Source: Parcubacteria group bacterium M10-OD1-1 (GTDB lineage Bacteria > Patescibacteriota > Minisyncoccia > Moranbacterales > UBA2206). From it: a stretch of 64,000 nucleotides of DNA. The translations under genes and the position numbers were made by a program. Below the pieces are notes generated by a model. That model did not search any database. It was not told the origin of the DNA and saw only the letters and a program-made list of their open reading frames with translations. The stretch lies in the NCBI GenBank assembly GCA_003056145.1, contig LSNL01000003.1, forward strand, positions 201,993 to 265,992, given 5' to 3'. This document shows positions 10,401-61,555 of this stretch, one piece after another. Numbering within the stretch: the first letter of the stretch is position 1; each line of letters begins with the position of its first letter.

Positions 10401-11141
10401 ATGCTTTACTCAATTATACCTCCAATCATAGTAGTCTTAAGTTTATTAGGAATAATTCTATTCTTAATGAAAAAAGCTCCAGAAATAGCTCGTTTAGCTG
10501 AAGCCCAAAAGAAGATTAATAACACTGAAACATATTATACTCATTCAGTAAAAATGATTGAGAAGCAAAAAATAGTAACCATAATCGGCTTGCTTTTAAT
10601 TAAAAAAATTCATCAATTAAAAATATTTTTTCAAGAAAATAAAAGATTTTTTATTGATTGGAAAAAGCAACTAAAAATTAAAAAGGCACAGAAAGAAAAA
10701 TTAGCAGAAAGAAAAGAATTAGAACAGTTAGAAAATTTAGAAAATAAGGAAGGGGATACTTTGATTGATGTGCATAATGAGGAATATCTTAATAAACTAA
10801 TAGAGGAGAATAGTGAATTACAAAAAAAAGAAGTTACTAAACAGGCTAAGATTATTAGAAAAAGAGAAATTAGAAAAGCTATTAAACCAATAGTTAGTAA
10901 AAGAGTAGTAACACCTAAAAAAATTAGAGAGAGAAAAGATATTTTTGAAAAGATATTAATTGATAGAATCGCGGTTAATCCAAAGGATATTGAAGCTTAT
11001 GAAAGATTGGGAGAATATTATAGTGAGATTGAGAACTGGGAGTATGCTAAAGAATGTTTTAAGCAAGTTATAAGACTTGATAATAAAAATATTAGTGTTA
11101 AAATAAAAATGAAAAGATTAGAACGATTGCTGAGCAAATAG
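10401..11141 (+). CDS. hypothetical membrane-anchored coiled-coil protein with C-terminal TPR-like repeat
   Basis: N-terminal TM 'IIPPIIVVLSLLGIILFL', Lys/Glu-rich coiled coil, and 'YERLGEYYSEIENWEYAKECFKQVIRLD' TPR-like helix pair. Confidence 0.5.
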   Translation: MLYSIIPPIIVVLSLLGIILFLMKKAPEIARLAEAQKKINNTETYYTHSVKMIEKQKIVTIIGLLLIKKIHQLKIFFQENKRFFIDWKKQLKIKKAQKEKLAERKELEQLENLENKEGDTLIDVHNEEYLNKLIEENSELQKKEVTKQAKIIRKREIRKAIKPIVSKRVVTPKKIRERKDIFEKILIDRIAVNPKDIEAYERLGEYYSEIENWEYAKECFKQVIRLDNKNISVKIKMKRLERLLSK

Positions 11142-11228
11142 TTCTCAGGAAGTGTTTTATTTTTTCGCCAAGAAAGTTAAAAAATCTAAAGGCTAGTTAA
11201 CTTGGCGAATAAATTTAAAAATGATTTT

Positions 11229-11302
11229 GCCTGAATAGCTCAGTTGGTTAGAGCAACTGTTTTGTAAACAGTAGGTCGTCGGTTCGAATCCGACTTCAGG
11301 CT
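11229..11302 (+). tRNA. tRNA-Thr (anticodon TGT)
   Basis: Hand-folded cloverleaf: acceptor gcctgaa/ttcaggc, D arm gctc..gagc, anticodon stem actgt/acagt with loop tttgtaa, T arm gtcgg-ttcgaat-ccgac. No encoded CCA. Confidence 0.8.
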
Positions 11303-11325
11303 CAGTAATGATGGAATTTAATTAG

Positions 11326-11408
11326 GGGTCGGTGGCAGAGTGGTTAAATGCACCTGACTGTAAATCAGGCGACGTAAGTCTACGGCGGTTCAAATCCGTC
11401 CCGGCCCA
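11326..11408 (+). tRNA. tRNA-Tyr (anticodon GTA) with long variable arm
   Basis: Acceptor gggtcgg/ccggccc (one G-U), anticodon stem cctga/tcagg with loop ctgtaaa, long variable arm, T loop ttcaaat. Confidence 0.75.
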
Positions 11409-11463
11409 CATCAAGATTGTAAAAAGCAGGCTATTATTATAGATAGAGAACGGAGGTTTCTAC

Positions 11464-11536
11464 GCCGAGATAGCTCAGCTGGTAGAGCACGTCCATGGTA
11501 AGGACGGGGTCCCGGGTTCAAGTCCCGGTCTCGGCT
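11464..11536 (+). tRNA. tRNA-Thr (anticodon GGT)
   Basis: Acceptor gccgaga/tctcggc, D arm gctc-agctggtag-agc, anticodon stem cgtcc/ggacg with loop atggtaa, T arm ccggg-ttcaagt-cccgg. Confidence 0.8.
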
Positions 11537-11616
11537 CAGGGATTATTGAGGAAAAATAGTTTAGTAGGTAATAAAATTAATCGAAATTAAAATTTAACAT
11601 ATTTAATATAATAATT

Positions 11617-11772
11617 ATGACACGAGAAAATTTAGTGAAGATGAAATGCGAAGTTTGTAAAAATATTAATTATTTTACATCCCGAAATAAAAAAACTATC
11701 AAAGAAAAATTAGAGTTAAAAAAACATTGTCCAAAATGTCGCAAGCATACTTTACACAAAGAAATGAAATAA
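11617..11772 (+). CDS. rpmG: 50S ribosomal protein L33 (51 aa); below the ORF-track cutoff
   Basis: Manual translation [51 protein letters not shown] shows the L33 CxxC...CxxC zinc ribbon. Sits directly after the tRNA cluster, as in many bacteria. Confidence 0.85.
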
Positions 11773-12118
11773 GTGGAAGATTTGATAGGTTCTACTTTTG
11801 TGAACTTGCGAGTTTGGTTTGTTAGAATACTCTTTGACAAATAAAAGTAAATGCAGATTAATAATAAAGTGAGGATCCCCAAATTTCTTAACGGAAGCTT
11901 GATTCTCTTTTATTGTTTTGGAGGTAGTCATTTTTAAAATGGCTGTCTTTGTTTCATCAAAGGCTTTAAATAATAGTAAAGCTTGACTTAGTGCTTATTT
12001 TATATTAAACTTATATGTTGAGTAAACTTACTCACAAATTTACAATTGAATAGTTGAATATATGGATAAAAATGAATCTTATTTAAAAAAATTTTACTAA
12101 GAAAAAAGGAGGGAGAAG

Positions 12119-12571
12119 ATGAAAATAAGAAGAGTTTGTGAAGATGATAGAAAAGTTCTTAGAGTAATAGCTTTTGGCATACTTGAGCCTTTGTATGGAG
12201 ATCAGTCAAAAGCTTTGCATGAATGGATTTCTGGAGAAGGTTTTAAATATGCCTTTGCCCTAGTATCAAAAAACAATGAGGTGGCTGGATTTTTGTCTCT
12301 CAAAGCTAATCCAGCTAATCTATATCTAAAAATTTCAACACTTCTGATTTTTGATGGACATAAAAAACTTGGATATGGTAAAAAATTACTTGCTAAAGCT
12401 ATTCACGTAGCAGAAGAACTTGGTTTCAAGAAGATAAAAGTCACAGTGTCTGACAGCAAGCAGGAATCTCTGAATTTTTTTACTCATGCAGATTTTATTA
12501 TTGTTGATAAAAAGTTGGGTAAATATAGACAAGACGCTACTGAAATAATACTTGAAATGGAGGTTATATAG
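12119..12571 (+). CDS. GNAT-family N-acetyltransferase
   Basis: Acetyl-CoA P-loop-like motif 'KKLGYGKKLLAKA' (Q/R-x-x-G-x-G/A). ~150 aa. Strong SD AAGGAGGG at 12107-12114. Confidence 0.75.
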   Translation: MKIRRVCEDDRKVLRVIAFGILEPLYGDQSKALHEWISGEGFKYAFALVSKNNEVAGFLSLKANPANLYLKISTLLIFDGHKKLGYGKKLLAKAIHVAEELGFKKIKVTVSDSKQESLNFFTHADFIIVDKKLGKYRQDATEIILEMEVI

Positions 12572-12912
12572 TGAAAGAGTTAAGATTTAAACGCAAATAT
12601 TTAATGATGGTTGATTCGGAGAATAAGACTCTGGAATGTAGAGTTAATTATCCATTTATCAGAAACATCAAAAAAGGTAACGTTGTGAAATTTTTTTGGG
12701 AGAAAGTATCCTTAATTGTTAAAATTATTGAGATTAGGCGATATAAAACATTTAGGGATATGTTCATGAAAGAGAATGTTAGTAAGCTTGTTCCTGGAAT
12801 GACACCAGAACAAGCGTTGCGTGAATATGAGTCAATCTATCCGAAATGGAAAGTCCAGAGGTTTGGCGGGCTTATTGTTTTTGAATTTAAACTTATTCAC
12901 AGGGAAAAGTAA
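12571..12912 (+). CDS. ASCH-domain protein, YqfB-like (putative N4-acylcytidine amidohydrolase)
   Basis: GTG start overlaps the GNAT TAG stop by 1 nt (taGtg). ASCH 'NKTLECR' (GxKxxExR-type) motif, plus 'EQALREYESIYPKWK...LIVFEFKLI' resembling E. coli YqfB 'ADIYPGQTQFYVIEFK'. Confidence 0.65.
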   Translation: MKELRFKRKYLMMVDSENKTLECRVNYPFIRNIKKGNVVKFFWEKVSLIVKIIEIRRYKTFRDMFMKENVSKLVPGMTPEQALREYESIYPKWKVQRFGGLIVFEFKLIHREK

Positions 12913-12935
12913 AATTATATTGCAGTATCAATAAT

Positions 12936-12970
12936 AAGGTGGTAGGCTGAAAAAGCAAACCACCTTTTTT
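12936..12970 (+). terminator. candidate intrinsic terminator after GNAT-ASCH pair
   Basis: 8-bp stem aaggtggt/accacctt, ~15-nt loop, followed by TTTTTTATTTT. Confidence 0.45.
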
Positions 12971-12981
12971 ATTTTAGAATT

Positions 12982-13314
12982 ATGAAAATTATTTCAATCA
13001 ACATACAGGAACCATATTATTCATTTATTTTGAATGGAAAAAAGACTATAGAAGGACGTCTAAATAAGGGAAAATTCGCTTCTATAAACATTGGTGATAG
13101 CATAGAATTAAAGCCGGAAAAAATCAGGTTTTTGATTGTTGAAAAAAAAATATATAAAAATTTTAAGGAAATGATGAAAATAGAAGGTGTAAAAAATGTT
13201 ATTCCTGATAAAAATAGCTTAGATGAGGCAGTGAATGTTTATTATAAATTTTATACAAAAGAAGACGAACAAACATTTGGTGTTGTGGCTATTAGAATTA
13301 AAAGAGACAATTGA
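12982..13314 (+). CDS. ASCH-domain protein, second YqfB-like paralog
   Basis: Perfect ASCH motif 'NGKKTIEGR' (G-x-K-x-x-E-x-R). ~110 aa. C-terminal 'VYYKFYTKEDEQTFGVVAIRIK' resembles the YqfB C-terminus. Confidence 0.65.
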   Translation: MKIISINIQEPYYSFILNGKKTIEGRLNKGKFASINIGDSIELKPEKIRFLIVEKKIYKNFKEMMKIEGVKNVIPDKNSLDEAVNVYYKFYTKEDEQTFGVVAIRIKRDN

Positions 13315-13516
13315 AGAAGTAATTGATGATTTGCTTAAAAGAATAATAGAAGTTAAAATAAATATTAAGGAAGGTAGGAGTTAAATAAGATTAATTCTAG
13401 TTATTATCTTTGTAGATACACTTATAATTTTAACTAAACTTTTGATTGGAAATTTCTTTTATTGTTTTAAATTGATTATCTAGTAAAAAAAATTAAATGC
13501 AAAAGGAGGAAGGCTA

Positions 13517-13759
13517 ATGAAACAGAGAAAGGAAGTTATGTTAACAGTCTGTTGTGGTTGTCAGGATAGAGGAGCCTTGGGTTGTTATGATAGTCGCAGA
13601 GAAGAGGAGAAAAAAATTCTTTATTGTGAATCTTGTGGTGTCATGCATTGCCCGACAACTAATAGTCCAGATAGCTATGGGCTATGTCCAAAGTGTCATC
13701 AAGGACTTCTTCAAAAAATAAAGGAATTAGCACTAGCTGAAAAAAATAAAAAAAAATAA
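13517..13759 (+). CDS. small Cys-rich (9 Cys) putative zinc-ribbon protein
   Basis: 'VCCGCQDRGALGC' plus 'CESCG...(16 aa)...CPKCH' (CxxC-x16-CxxC). Strong SD AAAGGAGGAAGG immediately upstream. The true start may be the internal Met at 13538. Confidence 0.55.
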   Translation: MKQRKEVMLTVCCGCQDRGALGCYDSRREEEKKILYCESCGVMHCPTTNSPDSYGLCPKCHQGLLQKIKELALAEKNKKK

Positions 13760-13781
13760 AAAGAAGATTGCTCTTTTTTAA

Positions 13782-13819
13782 GTGGTATTTTTCGTAATTA
13801 CGAAAAACACCACTTTTTA
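13782..13819 (+). terminator. intrinsic terminator after the Cys-rich ORF
   Basis: ~14-bp near-perfect hairpin gtggtatttttcgta/tacgaaaaacaccac with aatt loop, followed by TTTTT. Confidence 0.65.
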
Positions 13820-13990
13820 TTAAATAAATTTTAGAGATAAAAATTTTAATAATAAAAAATAAATCAAGCTAATTAAGAATTCTTTTTATAGTGTAAATTT
13901 TAAATTGTGATATAATAATAAAAAGTGAGATAAACATTAAAAACTTTTGAAATTATAGGAGATGGGAGATATTAAATAACTGATAAATGT

Positions 13991-14695
13991 ATGAGTATAA
14001 AAAAAGAAAAAATAATAATTGCTGTTGACGATTTTGGTGTCAGTAAAAAAGCCAATCAAGCTATTTTAAAATTGGTGAAGGTCGGAAAAATTGACCGAGT
14101 AGCGGTAATGATGGGAGGAAAAATTTCCAAAGAAGAGGCACGAGAACTTTTAAATTCAGGCGTGAAACTAGATATACATTTACATCTTTTGGGAAAGAAT
14201 TTTTTCGCCAAAAGAAAGGATGAACCATCTATTAATATTTTTCAAAGAATAGCTTTTTTTTTAGTGGATATTATGATTGGGAAGTATAGTGTTCCAAAAA
14301 TTAGAAAAGCTTGGAGAAGGCAGTTGGAAGATTTTAAGGCTTCGTTTGAAAGATATCCTGATGGTATAAATTCTCATGAGCATATGCATTTTTTTCCGAC
14401 ATTCTTTAAGGTTGCCCTGAAGTTAAAAAGAGATTGTAGTATTGGCTATATTAGATTTGGGGAAGAAAAATATAATTTAAAATTTAATTTGGTGGCTTTT
14501 ATTCTTGATCTCCTAAGAATAGTGAATTTAAAATTTAACAAAGATAAATTTGAAACATCTAAGTATTTAGTCAGTTTTGATTGGATTGAAAATGATGCTA
14601 ATTTCTTTAAGCATCTTTCTTCGGTTGATAGTACTGAATTGGTTTTTCATCCAGAGCGAGACAATGAATTTGAATTTTTGATAAAAAACTTTTAG
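13991..14695 (+). CDS. YdjC/ChbG/HpnK-family carbohydrate deacetylase-like protein
   Basis: N-terminal 'IIIAVDDFGVSKKANQAI' matches the YdjC 'NADDFGLS' signature; His-rich metal-site region 'HLHLLG...HEHMHFF'. Confidence 0.65.
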   Translation: MSIKKEKIIIAVDDFGVSKKANQAILKLVKVGKIDRVAVMMGGKISKEEARELLNSGVKLDIHLHLLGKNFFAKRKDEPSINIFQRIAFFLVDIMIGKYSVPKIRKAWRRQLEDFKASFERYPDGINSHEHMHFFPTFFKVALKLKRDCSIGYIRFGEEKYNLKFNLVAFILDLLRIVNLKFNKDKFETSKYLVSFDWIENDANFFKHLSSVDSTELVFHPERDNEFEFLIKNF

Positions 14696-14891
14696 ACTAA
14701 ATTATTTTTGAAGAGTAACAAAATTTAGAAGATATATTAGAGTGTGATAATTTTTGTTTCAACGCTATTTTTTATAAAGATAGACATTAGATAATGGATA
14801 GTTTTATCGTTAATGATATGTGCAGTGATTTTAGAAAGTTCTTTCACTAGATTTTAAATAAATATAAATTTATTTTTTATTTTTCTAGTGT

Positions 14892-16133
14892 TTATGACTG
14901 TTTTATTTTTGAAATTAAACTTTTGATAGGAATAATCTTGCTCTTTATTTCGTTTCTCTTTTTAAACTCAACGCCACCAGCGTCAATGGATTTTCCACTA
15001 ATTACGACTCTATACGGAATTCCAATTAAATCTGAGTCGGCAAACTTTTCTCCAGCTCGGACATTACGATCATCATAAAGAGTTTCAATGCTGTTTTTCA
15101 ATAAATCATCGTAAATTTTTTGTGCTTCCTCATCTTTTCCAAGGCTAATGAGATGAACATTAAAAGGTGCAACAGCTTCTGGCCAAATAATTCCCTTATT
15201 ATCATTGTAGATTTCGGTGATTGTTCCCATGACGCGTTGCGGACCGATACCGTAACATCCCATGATTACCGACTTTGATTTTCCTTCCTTATCTTTATAT
15301 TTTAAATCTAGTGCTCTAGAGAATTTATCCATAAGTTTAAAAATATTTCCTACTTCTACGGCTTTTTCTTCGTGCAATTTAGCATTTCCGCACTCAGGGC
15401 ACTGGTGATTTAAATCTTTGATTATTTCCTTGTTGACGGCGATGTGACACTTATCGCAAACATAAATTAAGTCTTCTCCAGAAGAAGTAATCGTTTGAAA
15501 TTCATGGGAATATTGGGAAAAAGTCCCACCAGAAGCATAAGTCATATAGGTTTTATCTCCTAATCCTAGTCGATTAAATATTTTAAGATAAGCCTCTTGA
15601 GCTTTTTTATAATATACTTCTAAATCTTCTTGATTGGCGTGGAAGGAATAAAGGTCTTTCATAATGAATTCTCTAAGACGCATTATTCCAGATTTGGCAC
15701 GTTTTTCATTTCTAAATTTAGTTTGAAATTGGTAGACATATTTTGGTAGGTCTTTATAGGAATTGATGTGTTTTTTAATTAAATTGACTAATGGTTCTTC
15801 ATGAGTTGTTCCTAGTCCAACTTCTCCGCCAGTTTTTATTTTGGTTTTAAACCACACATCCAAAACTTCGTCGTCCCAACGTCCGGTTATTTTCCAGATT
15901 TTCGGATTTTGAAGGGCGGTCAAAAGAATTTCTTGTCCTCCTATGGCATTAATTTCTTCGCGAATTATTTCTATTATTTTATTAAGTGTTCTAAGTCCAA
16001 GTGGCAAAAAAGAATAAACTCCAGCCATTTCTTTATCAATAAACCCAGCCCTAAGAAGAAGTTGAGCATTTAGACTGACCTCATCTTTGGGGGCTTGCTT
16101 TTGGGTTTTGGTAAATAATTGTGATTGTTTCAT
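14892..16133 (-). CDS. proS: prolyl-tRNA synthetase, short bacterial form lacking the INS editing domain
   Basis: 'MKQSQLFTKTQKQAPKDEVSLNAQLLLRAGFI' ProRS N-terminus; motif 2 'FRNEKRAKSGIMRLREFIMKDLYSFH'; 'SQYSHEFQTITSSGEDLIYVC' and C-terminal anticodon-binding domain. Only ~25-aa CxxC...CxxC mini-insert where INS would be. Confidence 0.85.
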   Translation of the reverse strand: MKQSQLFTKTQKQAPKDEVSLNAQLLLRAGFIDKEMAGVYSFLPLGLRTLNKIIEIIREEINAIGGQEILLTALQNPKIWKITGRWDDEVLDVWFKTKIKTGGEVGLGTTHEEPLVNLIKKHINSYKDLPKYVYQFQTKFRNEKRAKSGIMRLREFIMKDLYSFHANQEDLEVYYKKAQEAYLKIFNRLGLGDKTYMTYASGGTFSQYSHEFQTITSSGEDLIYVCDKCHIAVNKEIIKDLNHQCPECGNAKLHEEKAVEVGNIFKLMDKFSRALDLKYKDKEGKSKSVIMGCYGIGPQRVMGTITEIYNDNKGIIWPEAVAPFNVHLISLGKDEEAQKIYDDLLKNSIETLYDDRNVRAGEKFADSDLIGIPYRVVISGKSIDAGGVEFKKRNEIKSKIIPIKSLISKIKQS

Positions 16134-18507: not shown

Positions 18508-18649
18508 TAATCCAATCTTAGCTTACTTTAAAAGGTTTGTAAACTAAAGCTTAGGAGTAAAAATTTGCTTTTTACTTATTTTTTATGCTTTAATAAAAGA
18601 AATAGTTCCTTATTAGATTATCATTCTATTAATAAAGGAGGATGGGAAA

Positions 18650-18952
18650 ATGGAAAATTATATATTTTTAGTTCTTGGTATATTGGTAGTTGATTTAGTG
18701 GCAATATTTATTTTGAAAGAGTTTGATATTTTAGAATATTGCCAAAAGAAATATCAGGACCCAATCGCCTATATAGTAATGACCATGTTGATGTATATGG
18801 CGATAATAGGCAGTTGGATTATGCTGCCATTTATTGTCACTCTTTTCTTAGTTGAGAAAATTGGTCAAGCAATTATTATTAGGATAGTTAGTTTGGCATT
18901 AATGTTGGTTTTTAATAAAATGATGGGAGAAAAATCTTTTTTGGCGAGTTAA
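18650..18952 (+). CDS. small hypothetical membrane protein (3 TM)
   Basis: Three hydrophobic helices. Strong SD AAAGGAGGAT upstream. Followed by a clean terminator. Confidence 0.45.
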   Translation: MENYIFLVLGILVVDLVAIFILKEFDILEYCQKKYQDPIAYIVMTMLMYMAIIGSWIMLPFIVTLFLVEKIGQAIIIRIVSLALMLVFNKMMGEKSFLAS

Positions 18953-47223: not shown

Positions 47224-49413
47224 ATGAATTTAATCAGTATTTTTTTTATTTTTTTACTTCCAGCAAACGTAATCTTGCTTTTGTTGTTTAATTTTAACAA
47301 ATATTTTAAGTTAAAATATTATATTCAATTTATTTTTTCTTATGGAGTGGCTCCTTTGTCTAGTGCGTTAATTTTTCGTTATCTAATACTATTATTTCCA
47401 GAGAAAAGTAGCTTGTTTTATACCCTAATAATTGGTTCTTTTTGGATAATTTTATTGATCTTGTTTTTCAAAAATGTAAATAAATTAAAGATAGCTTATA
47501 GAAAGTTATATTTTTTTACAAAAAGGATTATTTCTTTTAGAAATTTTTTGATTTATTTTCCAATTATTTTTATGCTAATCATTTTTACTTTTCAAGCACT
47601 GGTTTACCCTATTGTTGATGGAGATGGAGCACGGTATATAAATCAAAGTAAAGCTATTTATACTTATAAAAATATTCAATGGGAAAAAAGAGCGGCGGTA
47701 ATTATTGCTAGTAATAATGAATACAGGTTTAATCCAATGATTAGGCCAGCTATTCCATATTTCGTAGCTTTAACTTTTATGATTGATGGAAATAGTAGAA
47801 GTTACTTTATGTATAAATTTTTAGCTTATTATTATTACTTATTACTTTATTTAATTTTTATAGTTTTGGTTTATACATTAGCAGACAAACTCAAAAAAAA
47901 TAAGAAACTTGCTATTTTTTTTGGAATGTTATTTTTTACTTTTTCTTGGGCATTGACTAGAACAATGATTTTTAGTAGTAAAGAATCAATTATTTATTTT
48001 TTTACTTTACTGGGAATTTATTTTGTATATCAACTTATTAACCATAAAAAAAGAAATGCTTATCTAGAAATTTTACTAGGTATTATTCTAGGGATTAACT
48101 CTTTTGTTAACCTCCATGGTATTATAATTGGATTGATTCTACTTTTTTTACTTCTAATATTTTCTAGCCTCAGCTTCTGGGAAAGGTTAAAACAATCTCT
48201 CGTTGTTTTTTCTCTGTATCTATTTTTTGGAGCATTTGAATTTATACTTAATTTTAAAGGTGTGTTTCCTTTTGTCTCAGCTAAAATTAGCAACTTTATT
48301 CTGAAAATATTTCCAGTCAAAGAATTAAAACAATCTTATGAAGATAATCTAGCCAGTATAAAAATAGACAGCCTTTTCTCAAAAGGAAGAGAAGGTGTTA
48401 GGCATATTATTTCAAGTAATAAAGAAATAAAGACTATTAAGGAAAGTAATCTTGGCTTATACCAAGTGAATAATGGTTGGGGTATATATCTTAAAGGAAA
48501 ATTGCAAATATTGACCAAGATAGGTGTTTTTGGTTTTTACTTTTGGTTTTTTTTAATAATAGTTGTAAATAATTTTAAAAAAATAGTATTTAGTCGGGTA
48601 GGAAAATTAATTGTAGCCTTTATAATTGTTTATTTTTTCTTATTTATGGACCCGTTTAATATAGATAAAAGTCCATTAGCTATTGTTTTATGGGGGAGTA
48701 CTAAATATGCAGAACTAGTTCTATTAATGAGTTTAGTTATTGTATCTGTGTATTTCTATGATTTTGCAAAAGGAATTTTTAGTTATTTAAATAAATATAA
48801 ATATAAAATGTTAATCTCATTAAGCTTTATAGTATTGATTCTGATTATTTTTAAAAATTTAATTAATGAAGTAGCTTTAAAAATGTTATTTGTAACAATT
48901 CCAATCTATAAGAATATTTTATTTTATAAAGATAAAATTTCTTTTTTCTATTTTTCCATGTTTCTATTTTTAATAGTAATAATATTATCATTGATAGTAA
49001 ATTCATTTAAGAAAAAGCAAATAGCATTTTATATATTCTTAACTACCTGTATTTTATTTTTCATAGGAGTACCATTTTTTATTACAAATATTGGTAAGGT
49101 TCCATTAGATAAAACTATCAGTGACTTATTTTTAGATCGTAAATTAAAATTAGAGGCAACAGTTAATAATAATGCTATATATGATGTATATTTTTATGCT
49201 AAAAAAATATTGCCAAAAAATACAATAATAACGACAAATTTTTCGGAATTATATATATATAATGATTACTTTAAATTAACAAAAACAAGGTATGTTGGGG
49301 TGGATTATCTAATAACAAAATCAGATTGTAGCGATAAATGGAGTAATATTTATTCCAATCAAGATGTAAATTTGTGCAAGAAAGTTAATGGAATAGACTT
49401 CTTTTCTGATTGA
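47224..49413 (+). CDS. large polytopic membrane protein (729 aa, ~16 TM), putative GT-C/Wzy-like polymerase or transferase
   Basis: Acidic 'YPIVDGDGARY' motif after early TMs. No soluble enzymatic motif. Confidence 0.4.
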   Translation: MNLISIFFIFLLPANVILLLLFNFNKYFKLKYYIQFIFSYGVAPLSSALIFRYLILLFPEKSSLFYTLIIGSFWIILLILFFKNVNKLKIAYRKLYFFTKRIISFRNFLIYFPIIFMLIIFTFQALVYPIVDGDGARYINQSKAIYTYKNIQWEKRAAVIIASNNEYRFNPMIRPAIPYFVALTFMIDGNSRSYFMYKFLAYYYYLLLYLIFIVLVYTLADKLKKNKKLAIFFGMLFFTFSWALTRTMIFSSKESIIYFFTLLGIYFVYQLINHKKRNAYLEILLGIILGINSFVNLHGIIIGLILLFLLLIFSSLSFWERLKQSLVVFSLYLFFGAFEFILNFKGVFPFVSAKISNFILKIFPVKELKQSYEDNLASIKIDSLFSKGREGVRHIISSNKEIKTIKESNLGLYQVNNGWGIYLKGKLQILTKIGVFGFYFWFFLIIVVNNFKKIVFSRVGKLIVAFIIVYFFLFMDPFNIDKSPLAIVLWGSTKYAELVLLMSLVIVSVYFYDFAKGIFSYLNKYKYKMLISLSFIVLILIIFKNLINEVALKMLFVTIPIYKNILFYKDKISFFYFSMFLFLIVIILSLIVNSFKKKQIAFYIFLTTCILFFIGVPFFITNIGKVPLDKTISDLFLDRKLKLEATVNNNAIYDVYFYAKKILPKNTIITTNFSELYIYNDYFKLTKTRYVGVDYLITKSDCSDKWSNIYSNQDVNLCKKVNGIDFFSD

Positions 49414-61251: not shown

Positions 61252-61555
61252 TTGATAATTAAATTTTTTAAAGGCTGAACTTTTTCACGAATATCTAAAT
61301 CTTATTTTTTCTGGTCTATTTTTACAATAAGTTTTTCCAACCTTTAAAAGATTTTGGCCTAAATTTTTCTTTATTATTCTTAATTTGATTAAGTCTTTAT
61401 TAAAAGAATTTCAAGAGCTTATAAAGGCTATTAGTTGACAAAGATTAAATTTAAATTATACTAAAATACTAGTACTTTAAATTTTTTAGTGTTTTCGGTT
61501 GGACTGATTTTGGTCTATTTGTAAATATTAACAATACAATATAAGGAGATAAAAG

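Follow-up and report, generated by a model that had tools for sequence, protein, structure and literature searches.

The N4 position of cytidine is acetylated by TmcA and NAT10, which use a GNAT domain and acetyl-CoA. For the opposite direction, ASCH domains have been proposed just recently as erasers of N4-acetylcytidine (ac4C); 19 of 19 ASCH proteins removed ac4C from tRNA in vitro, the Glu-type paralogues of Pyrococcus included (bioRxiv 10.64898/2026.02.27.708502). In that preprint six paralogues of P. kukulkanii were assayed, four of them Glu-type. The two kinds of domain have been brought together in the (PIN)-GNAT-EVE plus ASCH operons, which encode a fusion of a GNAT with a PUA-superfamily domain binding modified bases and, separately, an ASCH protein (Iyer et al. 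2013, as reported in PMC7641849). Their target was predicted computationally to be a nucleic-acid base or an aminoacyl-tRNA (PMC7641849). Here, a cassette is described that encodes a small GNAT protein and two ASCH proteins, ASCH1 and ASCH2. It lies in a stretch of 64,000 nucleotides from Parcubacteria group bacterium M10-OD1-1 (contig LSNL01000003.1, positions 201,993 to 265,992 of the forward strand), which is called the window below and to which coordinates refer unless another locus is named. The unit comprises a Shine-Dalgarno (SD) sequence, the GNAT gene, an ASCH1 gene overlapping with or fused to it, a terminator-like hairpin and the ASCH2 gene. Thus, an acetyl-CoA-dependent transferase is naturally paired with the putative eraser family, which bears on the question of who writes and who erases ac4C.

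In the window, the GNAT gene (12119-12571, plus strand; 150 aa, Pfam Acetyltransf_1 1.6e-11) is preceded by the SD sequence AAGGAGG (12106-12112, plus strand), which is located 6 nt 5′ of the start codon. Its TAG stop codon and the GTG start codon of ASCH1 (12571-12912, plus strand; 113 aa, PF04266 8e-8, PF0469-type) have base 12571 in common. A GC-rich hairpin followed by a T-tract, resembling an intrinsic terminator (12936-12972, plus strand; dG -17.7 kcal/mol, z -5.2), separates ASCH1 from ASCH2 (12982-13314, plus strand; 110 aa, PF04266 8e-13, PF0455/PH0355-type). Further downstream, a Cys-rich open reading frame (ORF; 13517-13759, plus strand; 80 aa, 9 Cys) and a YdjC/ChbG-like gene (13991-14695, plus strand; 234 aa, PF04794 4e-26) are found. 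Upstream of GNAT, the genes for tRNA-Thr(tgt), tRNA-Tyr(gta) and tRNA-Thr(ggt) (11229-11537) and rpmG (11617-11772; Pfam L33, 2e-18) are located. An earlier description made from the letters of this DNA (the sequence-only reading) had listed five small ORFs on one strand downstream of the three tRNAs and rpmG, with the 1-nt overlap, the hairpin and T-tract after ASCH1, the nine cysteines and the domain calls GNAT, ASCH (twice) and YdjC. All these items were confirmed, the domain calls by Pfam matches and the hairpin by direct folding. The consensus terminator scan had overlooked the hairpins, whose loops exceed 8 nt. An Rfam scan of positions 11000-15000 at E<=1 yielded just the three tRNAs above the gathering score. 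The window is AT-rich (approximately 30% GC), its relatives are labelled Patescibacteria, Parcubacteria or Pacebacteria, and the cassette is surrounded by core genes (SecA, SecDF, PheT, ValRS, proS, ispG, prfA).

Gene neighbourhoods were surveyed by lookups of ASCH1 homologues, by a scan for the GNAT signature motif in one genome per species and by a scan of metagenomes for the ASCH1 motif. The ORFs at these loci were sorted with hidden Markov models built from the trio proteins. GNAT, ASCH1, the hairpin and ASCH2 were detected in identical order in approximately 20 distinct loci of Patescibacteria (candidate phyla radiation, CPR) with unrelated neighbours. All five neighbourhoods of ASCH1 homologues contained GNAT upstream and ASCH2 downstream. 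The GNAT-motif scan revealed an adjacent ASCH gene in 7/7 CPR/DPANN loci and in most loci of Chlamydiae, and the complete trio order in each of the five CPR loci. In the metagenomes, GNAT was located upstream of ASCH1 in 13 of 13 testable loci, while ASCH2 followed in all 12 loci having downstream DNA. The trio order was also present in four of five further lineages. The flanks comprised ilvE/ilvD at one locus and, at others, a second GNAT with DUF1846 and tmk, a MazE-like gene with an SMC-like ATPase gene, rpsP-KH-trmD, dnaX, or NUDIX/CTP synthase genes. Since the flanking genes vary between loci, the trio is a conserved unit. The functional link between the GNAT and the two ASCH genes that had been supposed is supported by the strict order in unrelated neighbourhoods, by overlaps and by fusions in both orders, and the co-occurrence of ASCH-GNAT pairs proved to be conserved in relatives. 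A locus from a Pacebacteria-like lineage (L057, 5001-5829) has kept GNAT, the hairpin and ASCH2 and lacks ASCH1. GNAT can persist alongside the PF0455-type paralogue alone.

The sequence-only reading had drawn the module wider, with the Cys-rich ORF as a zinc ribbon and YdjC as a deacetylase acting together with the GNAT and ASCH genes. In the window organism all five genes are indeed adjacent and on the same strand, and YdjC has a deacetylase-type fold according to Pfam (92.9 bits compared to a cut-off of 29.7). The neighbourhood survey contradicts this proposal, as the Cys-rich ORF and YdjC were present only in the window organism and in none of the approximately 20 other cassette loci. Moreover, both genes are set apart by AT-rich spacers of 200-230 nt and by a strong hairpin (13780-13815; dG -20 kcal/mol, z -6.9). 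A module of five genes is therefore most improbable; GNAT, ASCH1 and ASCH2 were borne out as its members, while the Cys-rich ORF and YdjC are neighbours and not parts of the cassette.

SD matches of at least 6 nt precede only five of the 53 ORFs of the window. Three of them belong to the genes that had been flagged, GNAT (12106-12112), ASCH1 (12556-12561) and the Cys-rich ORF (13502-13508), the remaining two being a 100-aa ORF (18636-18642) and the gene for UDP-glucose dehydrogenase (61542-61547). The notion that these SD motifs are strong and unlike those of the core genes was thus correct. A GGAGG-like SD was found ahead of GNAT in 13/13 CPR loci checked, compared to roughly 15% of the other ORFs (nine loci sampled). 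The conservation in 13 CPR loci indicates that the strong SD is a property of the cassette and not a relic of import. The SD of ASCH1, GGAGGT, sits within the 3′ end of GNAT. At four loci with gene calls, the window and three others, the two genes share 1, 4 or 14 nt. GNAT and ASCH1 are a translationally coupled pair. A programmed frameshift at their junction was also considered. A -1 shift would join the two frames, but a slippery heptamer is missing and the idea was abandoned.

The spacer between ASCH1 and ASCH2 measures 48-82 nt. In 18 of 18 trio loci (the window, L004, L006, L009-L014, L036-L039 and L042-L046) it harbours a GC-rich hairpin whose tail is rich in T. The hairpin was additionally detected in L054, L057 and L058. 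As the stem sequences differ between lineages, it is the position and the structure that are conserved, not the sequence. ASCH2 starts 10-35 nt beyond the T-tail across the loci; in the window the distance is 10 nt and an SD is absent. The 3′ end of ASCH1 contains a weak promoter-like match (9 of 12 positions, 12886-12915). ASCH2 would thus be dosed separately from GNAT-ASCH1, through read-through or by the weak internal promoter, and the conserved hairpin may be an attenuator by which the dosage of ASCH2 is set or regulated.

Single polypeptides in which GNAT is followed by ASCH1 were recovered by the GNAT profile search in six cases (P0065, P0067, P0082, P0089, P0093, P0107). Four more remote GNAT-ASCH fusions (P0283, P0284, P0287, P0311) and two proteins with the reverse order, ASCH-GNAT (P0272, P0351), were found as well. 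The fusion P0107 occurs in two independent assemblies (L059, L060), with a free ASCH2 gene of 112 aa located 39 nt downstream. The AlphaFold2 model of P0065, calculated with 56 aligned family members, had a pLDDT of 96.4 and a pTM of 0.81 and contained no low-confidence linker, which suggests that this fusion is a confidently packed two-domain protein. A solved structure spanning both the GNAT and the ASCH half was not found, the best query-normalised TM-score being 0.51.

Both ASCH proteins belong to PF04266 (ASCH1 33.3 bits, ASCH2 49.5 bits, cut-off 21.2) and have the PUA-like beta-barrel fold. In PDB searches ASCH1 matched the Pyrococcus structure 1xne (1.5e-17), and ASCH2 matched 2z0t (3e-19) and 1s04 (7e-18). 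A rough neighbour-joining tree placed the CPR ASCH1 proteins together with the GNAT-linked ASCH proteins of DPANN and with PF0469, while ASCH2 grouped with PF0455. The octapeptide of ASCH1 reads ENKTLECR; relatives have G-x-K-T-L-E-C-R and the Gly is missing only in the window organism. In ASCH2 the motif GxKxxExR is complete, as had been stated, in the form GKKTIEGR. By their octapeptides, both proteins are assigned to the Glu ('GKER') class. Among 22 ASCH1 sequences, fused ones included, the residues R5, K7, Y10, K19, E22, R24, Y58, Y86 and Y90 are invariant, and the Lys, Glu and Arg residues of the pocket are invariant across ASCH1 and ASCH2. In the Thermus ASCH protein Tyr, Lys, Glu and Arg were mutated, and Lys and Glu turned out to be essential for the removal of ac4C from tRNA (bioRxiv 10.64898/2026.02.27.708502). 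These two octapeptide residues, which according to the preprint are essential in TthASCH, EOLA1 and TRIP4, are kept in ASCH1 (K19, E22) and in ASCH2. Furthermore, the isoelectric point (pI) of ASCH1 is 10.0 (family range 9.2-10.0) and an N-terminal Arg and Lys are invariant. A pI of at least 9 has been tied to the binding of tRNA or DNA by ASCH proteins, whereas the acidic YqfB shows no binding to nucleic acids (bioRxiv 10.64898/2026.02.27.708502). By analogy, the ac4C-removing Glu-type ASCH proteins of the same preprint lend outside support to the acetyl-cytidine idea.

The designation 'YqfB-like', which the sequence-only reading had given to both ASCH proteins, could not be maintained. They are of the PF0469 and PF0455 types, and only one of the three residues of the YqfB triad is kept at a pI of approximately 10 instead of 4.7. 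In the comparison with a provisional YqfB sequence, ASCH1 retains Lys21 of the triad Lys21-Thr24-Glu74 but has Glu22 in place of Thr24 and the invariant Pro75 in place of Glu74. Hence, of the Lys and Thr that both proteins were thought to keep, the Lys is present and the position of Thr24 is occupied by Glu in both. The C-terminal 'IYP' block said to be common to ASCH1 and YqfB does align. With the same provisional sequence, hhalign gave a probability of 7%, and a YqfB chain did not appear at E<=10 in three PDB searches. Membership in the YqfB type of ac4C amidohydrolases was rejected, as the catalytic residues differ and a sequence relationship is not detectable.

The GNAT protein is a member of the GNAT superfamily (Acetyltransf_1, 44.9 bits compared to a cut-off of 20.7). 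Its acetyl-CoA loop, KKLGYGKK, is intact, the G-x-G is conserved and G87 is invariant in 33 sequences. The family carries the N-terminal signature P-[LI]-Y-G-[DSN]-Q-x-K-A and is rare, since among 1.84 billion cluster representatives only 24 were found at E<=1e-30 and 244 at E<=1e-10. The top PDB profile matches were PaiA, streptothricin acetyltransferase and Naa50 (~1e-7), and the top Foldseek match was the RimI-like structure 9mto. All NCBIfam scores were far below the cut-offs, the RimI equivalog reaching 23 bits instead of 86. On these scores the protein lies outside every characterised family, its nearest folds being of the RimI/Naa type. It does not belong to the TmcA/NAT10 type: the protein is a single domain of 150 aa, the Pfam families matched at E<=1 were general GNAT ones only, and TmcA/NAT10 chains were absent among the best 60 PDB matches of each search. 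In P0363 (795 aa), a remote member of the family (E 8e-15), the GNAT is joined to an entire acetyl-CoA synthetase (ACAS_N, AMP-binding); judged by its domains, this protein would couple acetate activation to acetyl transfer.

Fusions in both orders, coupled translation and a packed predicted fold argue that GNAT and ASCH1 act together. To our knowledge, binding or cleavage of amide substrates by ASCH pockets has been described for N4-acyl-cytosines only. The simplest model is hence one in which ASCH1 holds the acceptor of an acetyl-CoA-dependent enzyme. The reading preferred here, plausible but still short of probable, is that GNAT-ASCH1 is one enzyme working on a cytidine-type substrate and ASCH2 a separately dosed deacetylase, the cassette adding and removing an acetyl group on cytidine. 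GNAT and ASCH1 would be synthesised jointly and form a single enzyme of two domains, in which GNAT would move the acetyl group from acetyl-CoA while the attached, very basic PUA-like ASCH1 domain would hold the acceptor. The acceptor would most likely be a cytidine base in RNA (tRNA or rRNA), RNA being preferred because of the charge of ASCH1; a nucleoside or nucleotide of cytidine in free form is the less likely option. It is conceivable that ASCH1 also hydrolyses misplaced N4-acetyl groups as an editing domain in cis. In this respect it may be likened to the editing domains of aminoacyl-tRNA synthetases and their free-standing paralogues. ASCH2, expressed apart by read-through of the hairpin or from the weak internal promoter, would be a free N4-acetylcytidine amidohydrolase, and the cassette as a whole would put on an acetyl mark and take it off again. 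What we infer is which acceptor is used, in which direction each reaction runs and how ASCH1 and ASCH2 share the work.

Several points weigh against the cytidine acetylation model. Action of this GNAT on a nucleobase is hypothetical, as is the chemistry of the cassette as a whole. The closest folds of the protein are those of protein N-terminal and polyamine/antibiotic acetyltransferases and not of the TmcA/NAT10 GNAT, and according to Pfam it is devoid of the helicase and tRNA-binding domains of the known ac4C writers. A writer fused to an eraser also runs the risk of a futile cycle, and the Pacebacteria-like locus indicates that ASCH1 is dispensable for GNAT. It is disputed whether Glu-type ASCH proteins act on ac4C; the supporting preprint lacks peer review, and an earlier report, as cited in it, found no activity for ZmASCH, TRIP4 and EOLA1 (bioRxiv 10.64898/2026.02.27.708502). 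High pI values are frequent in AT-rich proteomes and hence poor evidence. Finally, genes for NUDIX, HD, Ham1 or HIT hydrolases are located at a distance of up to 5 kb from the cassette in 6 of 12 annotated contexts, relative to a background that was guessed, and these neighbours point to free nucleotides at least as much as to RNA.

The last point leads to the main rival, salvage or sanitation of the nucleotide pool, which we regard as rather unlikely. According to this explanation, the ASCH proteins deacetylate free, host-derived N4-acyl-cytosine nucleosides or nucleotides for the reuse of cytidine, in the manner of YqfB and EOLA1, and GNAT modifies a related small molecule. Free ac4C was fully hydrolysed within 4 h by the Glu-type proteins Pku1 and Pku3 (bioRxiv 10.64898/2026.02.27.708502). 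The cassette is limited to the nucleotide-scavenging, host-dependent CPR, DPANN and Chlamydiae, and its neighbours include NUDIX genes (L015 5917-6396; L056 1468-1995; L057 26-508), an HD hydrolase gene with a DHODH-like gene (L016 1379-3713), Ham1 (JGI 3300075153 contig), HIT with purL (L058 7517-7981), tmk with purD (L006) and CTP synthase (L056). PaiA and streptothricin acetyltransferase, the top sequence matches of GNAT, are small-molecule acetyltransferases. However, salvage requires a hydrolase alone and leaves the rigidly fused acetyl-CoA-dependent transferase unexplained. In addition, the enrichment of such neighbours is anecdotal, given its guessed background, and the ASCH1 family is strongly basic, unlike the nucleoside-specific YqfB.

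If, on the other hand, the RimI-like Foldseek match reflects the function of GNAT, the protein could be an N-terminal or lysine protein acetyltransferase of the RimI/Naa type that is tethered to RNA or the ribosome, the ASCH proteins being non-catalytic PUA-like adaptors docking on rRNA or tRNA. Relatives are labelled 'RimI-like' in several database sources, translation genes are frequent neighbours (rpmG and tRNAs in the window; rpsB-tsf; rpsP-trmD; S1 and LepA; secY-adk-map), and chlamydial GNAT proteins are fused to the protein-interaction domains WD40 or LRR. But the score of the RimI equivalog is far below its cut-off, and any reduced genome is rich in translation genes. Besides, an invariant pocket of the catalytic type (Lys, Glu, Arg, Tyr) in both ASCH proteins exceeds the needs of an adaptor. 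A tethered protein acetyltransferase is therefore improbable.

The sequence-only reading had also considered a toxin/antitoxin arrangement conceptually like DarT-DarG. In a toxin-antitoxin or defence system of this kind, or of the (PIN)-GNAT-EVE kind, GNAT would acetylate e.g. an aminoacyl-tRNA or a base and an ASCH hydrolase would reverse the damage. The layout that was predicted to be toxin-antitoxin-like likewise combines a fusion of GNAT and PUA-like domain with a separate ASCH protein (Bell et al. 2020, PMC7641849). The neighbourhoods are varied, with a MazE-like gene and an SMC/AAA ATPase gene once (L009) and GIY-YIG fragments twice, and the conserved internal terminator could fix the ratio of toxin to antidote. 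The proteins themselves argue otherwise. The GNAT toxins TacT, AtaT and KacT were absent among the best 60 PDB matches per search, NCBIfam and PADLOC yielded no toxin family, PADLOC giving nothing beyond a marginal match of 0.003, a ribbon-helix-helix (RHH)/DUF1778 partner is lacking, and an EVE or PIN domain was not found by Pfam. Core genes surround the cassette, its composition is native and synteny is kept in a relative whose GNAT is 45% identical. Furthermore, expression of the putative antidote would be lower than that of the toxin, and fused forms hold both activities in one chain, which argues against a simple toxin/antidote pair. The proposal was thus not upheld and we consider it very unlikely. 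A defence or phage origin was rejected too, as PADLOC gave nothing useful and PHROGs just generic 'acetyltransferase' and 'RNA-binding protein' families.

Outside CPR, two DPANN archaea (L015, L016) possess a reduced GNAT-ASCH pair with 37% identity, directly followed by a NUDIX gene in one and an HD hydrolase gene in the other. Environmental Chlamydiae (approximately 32% identity) encode a GNAT-WD40 protein, a GNAT-ASCH fusion, one to three free ASCH proteins and a WD40 protein. CPR, DPANN and Chlamydiae are all host-dependent organisms with reduced genomes. The chlamydial GNAT-WD40 proteins comprise 520-565 aa, and one LRR-GNAT-WD40 protein has 766 aa (L027 4887-8893; L026, L028, L030; P0277, P0290, P0361). 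These eukaryote-like interaction domains suggest a host-directed role of the chlamydial GNATs. Three metagenome-assembled genomes labelled 'uncultured Bdellovibrionales' or 'Gammaproteobacteria' (L010, L011, L012) contain cassettes of the CPR type with 45-78% identity to the window GNAT; their taxonomic labels or binning look questionable.

A recent horizontal acquisition, inferred at first from the strong SD motifs and the position next to tRNA genes, found no support in the data. A compositional test for such transfer was negative, GC, GC3 and skew being the same as in the surroundings (GC and GC3 equal the rest of the window), and the strong SD is a conserved trait of the cassette. Synteny is retained in a relative with 45% GNAT identity (L058), in which the trio is located 3′ of the same rpsB-tsf-PSP1 block as in the window. 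Over longer time scales the cassette relocates as a unit, since its sites vary across lineages and an identical GNAT protein (P0062) was found in two different neighbourhoods (L054, L055). Genes or fragments of GIY-YIG endonucleases were detected just upstream of the cassette in L054 (3725-4719) and L058 (3759-4010). Together with the two contexts of P0062 they hint at an occasional mobility of the cassette.

As to the other genes of the window, the Cys-rich ORF contains two CxxC pairs and a C-terminal helix and is equipped with a strong SD and a very stable hairpin at its 3′ side. It belongs to no Pfam or NCBIfam family and has no homologue in any fetched locus; as a putative zinc ribbon it reached a Pfam E-value of 0.15, and the single-sequence AlphaFold2 model (pLDDT 53) is uninformative. 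The 100-aa ORF with a perfect AAGGAGG SD (18650-18952) has no Pfam family. Two large ORFs, 488-2458 (656 aa) and 47224-49413 (729 aa), gave no Pfam match at 1e-5 and lie in a well-annotated core region.

Within the preferred reading, the most specific form is that GNAT-ASCH is an unrecognised minimal, helicase-free RNA cytidine N4-acetyltransferase confined to CPR, DPANN and Chlamydiae, in which ASCH presents or proofreads the base and the second ASCH erases the mark. We consider this form unlikely. If true, it would represent a compact system of genome-reduced symbionts for writing, editing and erasing ac4C, and the restriction to the three groups would mark a trait shared by host-dependent microbes. 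If GNAT proves to be an acetyltransferase of proteins or small molecules, it would still represent a rare gene family conserved in minimal genomes. As a possible small acetyl writer of a new kind, or a writer that carries its own editing function, the cassette lends itself to direct testing, and its short genes and natural fusions make it tractable.

Compared to the known ac4C writers, the cassette GNAT is small. TmcA, NAT10 and Kre33 have approximately 670-1000 aa and combine a helicase/ATPase and a tRNA-binding domain with GNAT_acetyltr_2, to which the cassette GNAT has no match, while TmcAL, likewise an ac4C writer, is not a GNAT. The toxins TacT, AtaT, KacT and ItaT resemble the cassette in being small GNATs (approximately 150-175 aa) encoded next to another small protein in a compact operon. 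Their partner is an upstream RHH/DUF1778 repressor, whereas the partner in the cassette is a downstream ASCH protein and the location is in the core genome.

The direct homologues of the two ASCH proteins are PF0469 (1XNE) and PF0455/PH0355 (1S04, 2Z0T) of Pyrococcus, which have the same Glu-type octapeptide and approximately 110 aa. 1XNE, 1S04 and 2Z0T are structural-genomics entries with no assigned function. As in the cassette, PF0469 is followed by a second ASCH gene, but the Pyrococcus genes have no adjacent GNAT. In P. furiosus (L050, 4001-4911) PF0469 overlaps by 4 nt with the downstream ASCH gene of 190 aa, again with no GNAT. Tandem ASCH pairs thus occur in Thermococcales also, where a GNAT beside PF0469 or PF0455 was not found. 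E. coli YqfB (octapeptide GKTR) has in common with the cassette proteins the ASCH fold, the Lys and Arg of the octapeptide and the C-terminal 'IYP' block. It differs by its catalytic Thr24 and Glu74, for which ASCH1 has Glu and Pro, by its acidity compared to a pI of approximately 10, and by being encoded by a stand-alone gene. The Glu-type deacetylases TthASCH (2DP9), Pku1/3/5/6 and human EOLA1 share the octapeptide class, and their Lys, Glu, Arg and Tyr are kept in the cassette ASCH proteins. With their basic character the latter resemble the ASCH proteins reported to bind tRNA (bioRxiv 10.64898/2026.02.27.708502). None of the assayed Glu-type ASCH proteins is described with a GNAT partner, and the term 'GNAT' is absent from the main text of the preprint (bioRxiv 10.64898/2026.02.27.708502).

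Full-text literature searches for ASCH together with GNAT turned up only the (PIN)-GNAT-EVE plus ASCH operons; GNAT-ASCH fusions may already be mentioned in Iyer et al. 2006 or 2013. As far as they are described in the sources cited above, these operons are the nearest concept. The common logic is a GNAT fused to a PUA-like domain and accompanied by a free ASCH protein. The cassette did not qualify as a member, since it yielded no EVE or PIN match in Pfam and no PADLOC system and is flanked by core genes. Compared to the same descriptions, the fused domain in the cassette is ASCH and not EVE, PIN, AAA_17 and HTH domains are lacking, and there is no link to restriction-modification, CRISPR or prophages. 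Whereas the (PIN)-GNAT-EVE operons are described from defence islands of Proteobacteria and Firmicutes, the cassette resides in core regions of the genomes of CPR, DPANN and Chlamydiae.

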